This document shows positions 2,405 to 4,243 of a DNA stretch of 4,243 nucleotides, piece by piece. Made by a program: the position numbers and the translations under genes. The notes below the pieces were generated by a model. That model did no database searches. It saw only the letters and a list, made by a program, of their open reading frames with translations, and had not been told where the DNA came from. Each line of letters opens with the position of its first letter. Position 1 is the stretch's first letter. The stretch is from Qubevirus faecium, in sequence record FJ539133.1; one strand, written 5' to 3'.

Positions 2405-2424
2405 TAGCATGTCTAAGACAGCTA
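2405..2424 (+). promoter_or_regulatory. Replicase translational operator hairpin (coat-protein binding site spanning the replicase start codon)
   Basis: TAGCATGTCTAAGACAGCTA folds as an 8-bp stem (2405-2408 and 2410-2413 paired with 2417-2424), with a bulged A at 2409 (the A of the AUG) and a 3-nt loop UAA (2414-2416). The geometry and sequence match the Qbeta operator AUGCAUGUCUAAGACAGCAU. Confidence 0.7.
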
Positions 2425-4139
2425 GTCACAAGAAGAAAATTACTCAAGCATTGAGTAAGGTCGACATCAACTTTGAAGACGACATCCATATGTCTATTGC
2501 CAATGACCTCTTTGAGGCCTACGGCATTGCACCTCTTGCGTCGGCGGAGCAGTGTATCAGCACTCCGTTCCCTGACACTTCAATGGACGCTGATGCATTT
2601 CGCATCCATTACCTGCGTTCAGAGATCCTTAGCAAGTTCAGTGCGCACCCTCTCGGTATTGATACCGAAGCGGCCGCCTGGGAAAAGTTCCTGGCTGCCG
2701 AGGAGGGTTGTAGACAAACCAACGAACGTCTCACTAAGGTTAAGTACCATGATAATTCCATTTTGTCATGGGGCGAGCGTGTTATTCACACTGCTCGTCG
2801 AAAAATACTTAAACTGATCGGTGAGACTGTCCCGCTGGGGGATGTGGCGTTGCGCGCCCGATTTTCGGGAGGCGCTACGACCTCGGTTAACCGTTTACAC
2901 GGTCACCCGTCGTGGAAGCATGCCTGTCCGCAGGATGTAACCAAACGTGCACTGAAATACCTAATGGCCTATAAAAAGGCCTGTGGTGACGTCGTTGATT
3001 TACGCGTCAATGAGGTGCGCACTTCAAATAAAGCAGTCACTGTTCCAAAGAACAGCAAAACTGATCGTTGCATTGCCATCGAGCCCGGCTGGAATATGTT
3101 TTTCCAGTTAGGCGTAGGTGCTGTGCTCCGCGATAGGTTGCGCCTTTGGCAGATTGATCTTAATGACCAATCTGTTAATCAGCGCCTCGCACGCGATGCG
3201 TCGCAGTTGGACCATTTGGCCACTGTCGACTTATCAGCAGCAAGTGATTCGATAAGCTTACGGCTTGTTGAATTGCTAATGCCGCCTGCTTGGTTTGATC
3301 TCCTGACCGATCTCCGATCGGACCAGGGTGTCCTGCCAGATGGGCGTGTCGTTACTTACGAGAAAATATCCTCCATGGGTAATGGCTACACTTTCGAGCT
3401 GGAGTCGCTAATCTTTGCGGCCCTAGCCAGGAGTGTGTGCGAGTTGTTGGACCTTGACCAGTCAACCGTCAGCGTGTACGGTGATGATATAATCATCGAC
3501 TCACGTGCCGCTGATGTCCTGATGGCGGTTTTTGAGTATGTTGGGTTCACGCCTAACAGAAAGAAGACTTTCATTAAGGGCCCCTTTAGAGAGTCGTGCG
3601 GTAAGCACTGGCACTCCGGGGTTGACGTAACGCCCTTTTACATACGCCGCCCAATCCGTTGCCTAGCCGACATGATACTTGTTTTAAACAGTATATATCG
3701 GTGGGGCACGATTGACGGGGTGTGGGATCCTAGAGTACTGCCTGTGTACCAGAAGTACGTGAAGCTGCTACCAAGAGATTGGCGGCGCAACACTATACCT
3801 GATGGTTACGGTGACGGTGCTCTCGTCGGATTGGCCACGACTAACCCATTCGTTATCGTCCGGAATTATTCCAGATGGTATCCTGTGTTGGTTGAGGTCC
3901 AGAGGGATGCTAAGCGTCACGAGTTTGGCAGTTACTTATATGCCTTGCTGCGTGACCGCGAAGCACGTTACAATCCCTTCCTGCGTACTGCAGATGGGAG
4001 TGGGTTTGATGAAACACCGCTAGCTACTAGCCTTCGTCGCAAGACAGGTCGGTACAAAGTGGCGTGGATTCAGGACAGTGCCTTCATCCGGCCCCCTTAT
4101 TTTATTAAGGGAATTCCCGAGGTGAAGCTTGCGAGCTAG
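2409..4139 (+). CDS. rep: RNA-dependent RNA polymerase (replicase beta subunit)
   Basis: 576-aa ORF, ATG start, TAG stop. Contains the D-x4-D motif A (DLSAASD, 3228..3248) and the catalytic YGDD (3477..3488). The N-terminus MSKTASHKKKITQALSKVDINFEDD and much of the sequence are Qbeta/SP replicase-like; the length equals what I recall for the SP-group replicase. Confidence 0.95.
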   Translation: MSKTASHKKKITQALSKVDINFEDDIHMSIANDLFEAYGIAPLASAEQCISTPFPDTSMDADAFRIHYLRSEILSKFSAHPLGIDTEAAAWEKFLAAEEGCRQTNERLTKVKYHDNSILSWGERVIHTARRKILKLIGETVPLGDVALRARFSGGATTSVNRLHGHPSWKHACPQDVTKRALKYLMAYKKACGDVVDLRVNEVRTSNKAVTVPKNSKTDRCIAIEPGWNMFFQLGVGAVLRDRLRLWQIDLNDQSVNQRLARDASQLDHLATVDLSAASDSISLRLVELLMPPAWFDLLTDLRSDQGVLPDGRVVTYEKISSMGNGYTFELESLIFAALARSVCELLDLDQSTVSVYGDDIIIDSRAADVLMAVFEYVGFTPNRKKTFIKGPFRESCGKHWHSGVDVTPFYIRRPIRCLADMILVLNSIYRWGTIDGVWDPRVLPVYQKYVKLLPRDWRRNTIPDGYGDGALVGLATTNPFVIVRNYSRWYPVLVEVQRDAKRHEFGSYLYALLRDREARYNPFLRTADGSGFDETPLATSLRRKTGRYKVAWIQDSAFIRPPYFIKGIPEVKLAS

Positions 4140-4178
4140 ACACTAGCTCGTAATGGGAAGGGGCCTCTTTGAGGTCCC

Positions 4179-4198
4179 GGAAGGAGAAAGAAAGAAAA
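4179..4198 (+). other. 20-nt all-purine A-rich tract in the 3' UTR (candidate Hfq/host-factor binding site)
   Basis: GGAAGGAGAAAGAAAGAAAA contains no pyrimidine across 20 nt. Hfq, the host factor of Qbeta replicase, binds A-rich/ARN-type tracts near the 3' end of Qbeta RNA. Confidence 0.4.
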
Positions 4199-4213
4199 CT
4201 CCCTCCTGCGAGG

Positions 4214-4243
4214 GTGGGCTCTGCTTTGCCCACTCTCCTCCCA
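4214..4243 (+). promoter_or_regulatory. 3'-terminal hairpin plus single-stranded CUCUCCUCCCA tail (replicase initiation site)
   Basis: GTGGGC (4214-4219) is complementary to GCCCAC (4228-4233), with an 8-nt loop TCTGCTTT. The genome ends in ...CTCCTCCCA, the canonical levivirus 3' end; the final A is non-templated in Qbeta. Confidence 0.65.

Follow-up and report, generated by a model that had tools for sequence, protein, structure and literature searches.

We studied a stretch of 4243 nucleotides (nt) from Qubevirus faecium, sequence record FJ539133.1, referred to below as the window, for a putative long-range pseudoknot that joins the loop of its 3'-terminal hairpin (U1) to a short site inside the replicase gene. 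The window corresponded to a complete genome of a group IV Qubevirus (former Allolevivirus). It had the Qubevirus gene order and high identity to the type members: phage NL95 was 90.8% identical to it from end to end (100% of the length), and HB-P22, SP and FI were 78-84% identical. The translated replicase was 100% identical to the NCBI entry "replicase [Qubevirus faecium]". As shown below, the two strands of the pseudoknot are the same, in sequence and in position, as those of a pairing described for phage Qβ, and natural variants of both strands were found in distant relatives. The features of the element and the genes of the window, all on the positive strand, were as follows.

3030-3036, positive strand: upstream pseudoknot strand AAAGCAG, comprising Lys208, Ala209 and the first base of Val210 of the replicase.
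4210-4219, positive strand: 5' arm of the 3'-terminal hairpin U1, from the minimum free energy (MFE) fold, with two stem pairs showing compensatory changes across Qubevirus.
4220-4227, positive strand: loop of U1, UCUGCUUU, 8 nt, from the fold of the 3' end.
4228-4237, positive strand: 3' arm of U1, from the MFE fold.
4238-4243, positive strand: 3' tail CUCCCA, downstream of U1, where minus-strand synthesis starts.
2409-4139, positive strand: open reading frame (ORF) of the replicase beta subunit, 576 amino acids (PF03431), which houses the upstream pseudoknot site.
53-1378, positive strand: maturation protein ORF, from the ORF list.
1397-1795, positive strand, with a read-through extension to 2389: coat protein ORF, from the ORF list.

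The heptamer AAAGCAG was present in a single copy on the positive strand of the window, and its reverse complement CTGCTTT likewise occurred once, at 4221-4227. In the RNA the latter made up seven of the eight bases of the U1 loop (loop positions 2-8), so that seven contiguous Watson-Crick pairs are possible, from 3030-4227 through 3036-4221; the next opposed bases beyond 3036 were U·U. The starts of the two strands were 1190 nt apart, and the interval separating the paired stretches was 1184 nt. The exact complementarity and the spacing of about 1190 nt had been pointed out in an earlier sequence-only reading of this DNA, and both were reproduced here, with the loop itself being 8 nt long. 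The U1 stem consisted of 10 bp, one of them G·U, the last 50 nt of the window folded at -20.1 kcal/mol, and the loop had a probability of being unpaired, P(unpaired), of 1.0 in local partition functions. Single-sequence MFE and alignment folds also predicted that the 3'-terminal UCCCA (4239-4243) pairs with UGGGA at 4154-4158, just 3' of the replicase stop codon, in agreement with the virion model of Qβ, where the last six nucleotides fold back likewise (PMC8880383).

A match of seven bases over such a distance is not rare. Shuffled sequences gave 0.53 matches to the heptamer when both strands were counted, or about 0.26 for each strand of 4.2 kb, which is the chance of one in four calculated in the sequence-only reading. 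The duplex of 3030-3036 with the loop had an energy of -7.8 kcal/mol and, with G·U pairs allowed, four other sites of the window paired with the loop equally well or better: 1103-1109 (-9.5 kcal/mol), ~3145 (-8.1), ~996 (-8.0) and ~2545 (-7.9). Therefore complementarity combined with approximate distance, on which the sequence-only reading had based its case, is not strong evidence alone; it takes homology, conservation and covariation to lift the pairing above chance. The alternative partners at 1103-1109, ~2545 and ~3145 were rejected, since they were without conservation across the genus.

Qβ cannot replicate without a pseudoknot of its U1 loop with a site about 1200 nt upstream (PMC3561173), in agreement with what the sequence-only reading had stated; a single mismatch abolishes replication and a compensatory change restores it (PMC3561173). 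The primary study, Klovins and van Duin (J Mol Biol 1999), is used here through its summaries in PMC3561173 and PMC4176380. The position of the Qβ site relative to ours was obtained from a protein-guided codon alignment of 18 Qubevirus genomes: the window, NL95, HB-P22, SP, BR1, BR8 and FI of group IV, and Qβ, BR12, HL4-9, BZ1, TW18, VK, three Fr phages, M11 and MX1 of group III. The site at 3030-3036 aligned with Qβ 2973-2979, which has the identical sequence. The Qβ genome contained no longer complement of its U1 loop and no second one of 7 nt; the site lies 1220 nt upstream of the loop, and no other Qβ candidate fitted the published descriptions of the pseudoknot site. The heptamer was unique in 16 of the 18 genomes.

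The location of the site relative to the M-site, the internal replicase binding region, was also shared. The M-site of Qβ spans 2545-2867 (PMC4176380), and Qβ 2973-2979 lies 106 nt past it. The record of phage SP (X07489) annotates a "replicase binding region m" at 2629-2956; the replicases of SP and the window aligned without indels, and the coordinates were transferred with an offset of 33 nt.

2596-2923, positive strand: counterpart of the M-site, internal replicase (S1) binding region, transferred from SP X07489.

The pseudoknot site of the window was thus about 107 nt downstream of the M-site counterpart. In summary, the window and Qβ share AAAGCAG and CUGCUUU without a difference, the same replicase codons, the same terminal hairpin, a position just past the M-site, the same class of distance (1190 nt in the window versus 1220 nt in Qβ) and the genus. 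They differ in that the window is an NL95-like strain of group IV, not Qβ, that the sequence of its U1 stem departs from that of Qβ, with compensatory changes, and that its 8-nt loop is cleanly formed, the tip of the Qβ hairpin less so.

Conservation of the upstream strand went beyond what the protein requires. The codons at 3027-3038 (Asn207-Lys208-Ala209-Val210) were the same in all 18 genomes, AAT AAA GCA GT being identical throughout. The enclosing 11-mer at 3027-3037, AATAAAGCAGT, was unchanged in 18/18, synonymous positions included; no invariant nucleotide run of the replicase ORF is longer, and one other equals it. Among the 18 genomes, degenerate codons whose amino acid is invariant were also invariant as codons in 15% of cases (22% of two-fold and 12% of four-fold codons), and only two stretches of three such codons in a row occurred in the gene, Asn-Lys-Ala being one of them. 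For a triple specified beforehand, codon invariance of Asn-Lys-Ala is expected with a probability of about 0.006 (0.22, 0.22 and 0.12 for the three codons). On the other strand, the U1 loop was identical in 14 of the 15 Qubevirus genomes whose records reach it; the U1 stem differed between the groups by two compensatory pairs. Complementarity at homologous positions, whose lack in relatives the sequence-only reading had named as grounds for abandoning the pairing, was therefore intact in these 14 genomes and kept in six of seven pairs in the remaining one, HL4-9 (see below).

Other runs of the replicase gene were invariant in the 18 genomes as well: TGGGATCCTAG at 3723-3733 (11 nt, tying for the longest), CTCGTCGGAT at 3822-3831 (10 nt), GAAAAATA at 2800-2807, ATACCGAA at 2662-2669, TACATACG at 3639-3646 and ATGTTTTT at 3096-3103. 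GAAAAATA corresponds to the bulge 2749-GAAAA-2753 of a published kissing loop of Qβ (see below), and the others may mark further RNA elements.

The structural context was predicted by folding 15 aligned genomes with RNAalifold, from the start of the replicase gene through the 3' end. The consensus left the upstream site essentially unpaired, just 5' of a conserved hairpin at about 3040-3055.

3040-3055, positive strand: small hairpin directly 3' of the site, which it would leave in a short linker (window MFE fold and 15-genome consensus).
2840-2850 / 4078-4089, positive strand: long-range helix closing the 3' replicase domain (RNAalifold, 15 genomes).

In the predicted helix 2840-2850/4078-4089, 99% of the alignment cells were paired and three pairs showed compensatory changes. 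Two further helices were predicted in the same consensus, 2437-2443/4097-4103 with compensatory changes in four pairs and 2892-2896/3912-3916 with a compensatory change in one. Since helix 2840-2850/4078-4089 closes a domain that takes in the site and excludes U1, pairing with the loop would, on this predicted fold, be a true pseudoknot. In local partition functions the mean P(unpaired) of the site was 0.42-0.77, against a background of 0.31-0.42. A search of the whole window with the Rfam covariance models gave no match at E <= 1; Rfam has no model for the element, and a pseudoknot with a range of 1.2 kb could not be modelled in that way.

Variation in both strands was found outside the genus. 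A search of a protein collection retrieved allolevivirus-like metagenomic lineages with 46-61% replicase identity. All the lineages fetched retained Asn-Lys-Ala at the homologous position, with the heptamer as AAAGCAG, AAAGCAA or AAAGCGA. Over about 40 sequences the Lys codon was always AAA and the Ala codon only GCA or GCG, both of which pair with U; the third base of the Asn codon, outside the helix, varied between T and C. These three codon patterns fit a pairing constraint. Most of the contigs ended at the 5' arm of U1, and two lineages (46-48% replicase identity) had readable 3' ends. The contigs of P0137 and P0153 likewise ended at the 5' arm or were chimeric, and BLAST of the metagenomic 3' regions against the phage collection gave no extended records. 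A degenerate pattern of the 3' end, GCCCNCNCTCCTCCCA, yielded only random matches in viral and metagenome contigs. Among the 80 loci of an IMG/VR replicase alignment, only SP and FI were Qubevirus and the rest were about 40% identical; in the non-Qubevirus loci Gly-Asn-Lys-Val/Ile replaced Asn-Lys-Ala, and none had an intact 3' end.

In the first of the two lineages with readable ends, L356, the site was AAAGCGA and the loop UUUGCUUU, and the seven pairs were kept: relative to the window, G3036-C4221 became A-U and A3035-U4222 became G·U. Its 3' end read ...GGGGACAGG UUUGCUUU GCCUGUUCCCCUCC and was followed directly by the 5' end of the genome, GGGGUAGGGCCCC..., in a head-to-tail junction (3524-3560) that may be an assembly artefact or a product of template switching. 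The second lineage, L355, had a complete end, ...GAGAGGAGGC GUGUUGCUUA GCCUCCUCU ACCCCA, and its loop was confirmed in L354, from an independent sample. The L355 site was AAU AAA GCA ACA, in which AAGCAACA complements the loop GUGUUGCUUA over 8 bp (-10.4 kcal/mol); this was the sole 8-mer complement of the loop in the contig, positioned at the homologous codons, 1149 nt upstream. Compared with the window, G-C was again replaced by A-U and the terminal A-U pair was lost, as in HL4-9, and two new pairs (C-G and A-U) lengthened the other end of the helix. The L355 contig ended at 3195-3201 with ACCCCAAAAAAA, a short run of A past the expected ...CCCA terminus that is probably a product of library preparation rather than part of the genome.

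Covariation was counted over 14 sequences, also in a version with nine pairs. In the count, 98% of the cells were paired; both partners of one pair had changed in two sequences, and another pair showed a one-sided change. The observed covariation score was reached by 7 of 500 shuffles, and registers slid along the strands were only 28-55% paired. The covariation check proposed in the sequence-only reading gave no events within Qubevirus and, in two distant lineages, changes of both strands that keep the pairing.

Taken together, homology with Qβ 2973-2979, conservation and covariation indicate that the pairing of 3030-3036 with 4221-4227 represents, in a group IV Qubevirus, the long-range pseudoknot of Qβ, which is the type of element the sequence-only reading had proposed; we put the probability of this at about 0.87. 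By analogy with the Qβ literature, we infer that the pairing would form in the window strain and be needed for its replication. In Qβ the holoenzyme docks at the M-site via S1 and long-distance interactions carry the remote 3' terminus to the active site, where the minus strand is initiated (PMC4176380). In a corresponding scheme for the window, the replicase holoenzyme would dock at the M-site through ribosomal protein S1, and loop bases 4221-4227 of the plus strand would pair with AAAGCAG at 3030-3036, in the putative short linker about 107 nt past the M-site. The pseudoknot would so tie the 3' terminus to the docking region of the replicase, and the 3'-terminal CCCA could then be placed at the active site to start the minus strand.

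Several observations weigh against this interpretation. The first concern the variation of the strands. The Qβ strain HL4-9 had the loop CUGCUUA (4199-4205 of its genome), which breaks the terminal pair and keeps six of the seven; the outermost A-U pair seems dispensable. The same A is present at that loop position in the distant lineage L355 (3171-3180). Covariation of the pairing within Qubevirus was nil, with six of the seven pairs never varying, because both strands are invariant, and the genus is accordingly uninformative on pairing either way. Outside it, the covariation amounts to few events in two metagenomic lineages, in which the change of G-C to A-U is possibly shared by descent, and the terminal hairpin of L356 is known from the single head-to-tail junction contig only. 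Others concern the site. It ranks fifth among the duplex partners of the loop in the window, the CAG half was predicted to be paired in some genomes by local folding, and the single-sequence MFE of the genome paired 3033-3038 with 1612-1617; a single-stranded linker is therefore supported in part only. Further, the identification of Qβ 2973-2979 as the upstream strand comes from alignment, complementarity to the loop and the two summaries of the 1999 study. Last, invariance of the U1 loop has a second known cause, binding of the maturation protein in Qβ virions (PMC8880383).

This last point belongs to an alternative that we consider very improbable, namely that the match is fortuitous and that each strand is conserved separately, the upstream one for the motif Asn-Lys-Ala-Val-Thr-Val-Pro-Lys and the loop for binding of the maturation protein (A2). 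The amino acids NKAVTVPKNSKTDR were indeed invariant, a given heptamer should turn up 0.26 times by chance on each strand of 4.2 kb, and four other sites paired with the loop as well or better. Moreover, U1 of Qβ is bound by A2 in virions, and U1 mutants yield particles without A2 that are non-infectious (PMC8880383). Constraint on the protein, however, fails to explain three successive invariant synonymous positions (~0.006) or an Ala codon ending only in A or G, and the alternative partner sites were not conserved across the genus. In both lineages with readable 3' ends, where Val is changed to Thr, the changes of the site were matched by complementary changes of the loop, and the published compensatory mutagenesis of Qβ concerns the same sequence pair (via PMC3561173). 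The synonymous pattern and the complementary changes thus disfavour a chance match. Pairing of the loop and its binding by the maturation protein may be mutually exclusive states of U1.

Equally improbable is that the conserved 11-mer AAUAAAGCAGU is mainly a single-stranded binding site for a protein (Hfq, S1 or a coat-protein contact) and not an RNA partner. It is A-rich, largely unpaired in local folds and near the S1-bound M-site, as would suit Hfq and S1, which prefer A/U-rich single strands. Such a role, however, predicts no complementary changes in the distant 3' loop and leaves unexplained why the exact complement of the loop is conserved; the two roles are not mutually exclusive, and protein binding is possible in addition to pairing. 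Still less credible is a different group IV partner of the loop, GAGCAGA at 1103-1109 in the gene of the maturation protein, used in place of 3030-3036 or by turns with it. This site has the best duplex energy of the window (-9.5 versus -7.8 kcal/mol) and is present in all the group IV genomes examined and partly in M11 and MX1. It requires, however, a terminal G·U pair, its bases are accounted for by the conserved codons of Glu-Gln in a single group of close relatives, Qβ-type genomes have GCT CAA/CAG in its place, and it finds no support in the literature.

Next to this segment, at 1109-1120 of the window, the translation is ...EQI-GQL in the window and all the other group IV genomes, against ...EQTRPAL in the NL95 record. 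The difference suggests that an additional base in the 1998 record of NL95 shifts the frame locally; the discrepancy is either a sequencing error in NL95 or a real pair of indels.

The pseudoknot was further compared with other long-range contacts of these genomes. One or more of the helices 2840-2850/4078-4089, 2437-2443/4097-4103 and 2892-2896/3912-3916 may be the interaction that links the M-site to the 3' end in Klovins et al. 1998. That interaction is part of the same architecture, by which the 3' domain reaches the internal binding site of the replicase, and 2840-2850/4078-4089 and 2892-2896/3912-3916 are the candidates for it in the window; it differs in being an ordinary nested long-range helix and not a pairing of a loop with a linker in a pseudoknot. 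In Qβ virions two kissing loops have been described, 2844-UCGU-2847/1876-ACGA-1879 and 2811-UUUUC-2815/2749-GAAAA-2753 (Chang et al. 2022, PMC8880383). Like the pseudoknot, they are short conserved long-range tertiary pairings in coding sequence that constrain synonymous sites; unlike it, they were proposed for the architecture of genome packaging rather than for initiation of replication, and the 3' terminus takes no part in them. A full-text literature search for sequence words of the element returned unrelated papers only.

Other single-stranded RNA (ssRNA) phages follow the same principle as candidates only, with a terminal-hairpin loop that complements a site of the replicase gene 1.1-1.5 kb upstream. 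For phage M, a U1 loop UUGCU with AGCAA about 1215 nt upstream has been proposed as a candidate (Rumnieks and Tars 2012, PMC3561173). The codons homologous to 3027-3038 in MS2, GA, PP7, PRR1, AP205 and M were not complementary to the loops of these phages, and therefore the exact site is specific to the allolevivirus-like clade. In MS2, GA, PP7 and AP205, complements of their own, different U1 loops were located in one aligned region of the replicase.

MS2, 2211-2216: CAAGCA.
GA, 2199-2205: CAAGCAA.
PP7, 2320-2325: CUGAGC.
AP205, 2777-2784: UGCUAAGC.

These complements were 6-8 nt long and 1244-1468 nt upstream of the loop, with window-level frequencies of 0.03-0.07 each; in the same aligned region PRR1 had no complement and M only a 5-mer. 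The centres of the region were chosen after seeing the matches, and therefore this is a lead and not a result. The four sites lie about 110-215 nt before the Val-Pro-Lys motif, whereas the Qubevirus site lies 15 nt before it. It is conceivable, and at present rather doubtful, that pairing of the U1 loop is an old feature of many ssRNA phages whose upstream partner has moved, the allolevivirus-like clade using the Asn-Lys-Ala codons, and that the loop may switch between replication (pseudoknot) and packaging (protein-bound).

The pseudoknot is an element already known, and finding it here is correct but not new because the same pairing was described for Qβ; its confirmation in a group IV strain added nothing unexpected. 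The new content is modest: metagenomic relatives supply natural covariation in the form of compensatory variants, with A-U in place of G-C and a helix of 8 bp. These back a model whose basis inside the genus is invariance together with mutagenesis of a single phage. The element exerts a measurable synonymous constraint inside the replicase gene, and in recoding these phages or designing vectors from them the 11-mer at 3027-3037 and the U1 loop must stay complementary. For the biology of the group, the pseudoknot is part of how replicases of the Qβ type locate their own buried 3' end, by internal docking together with RNA tertiary structure.

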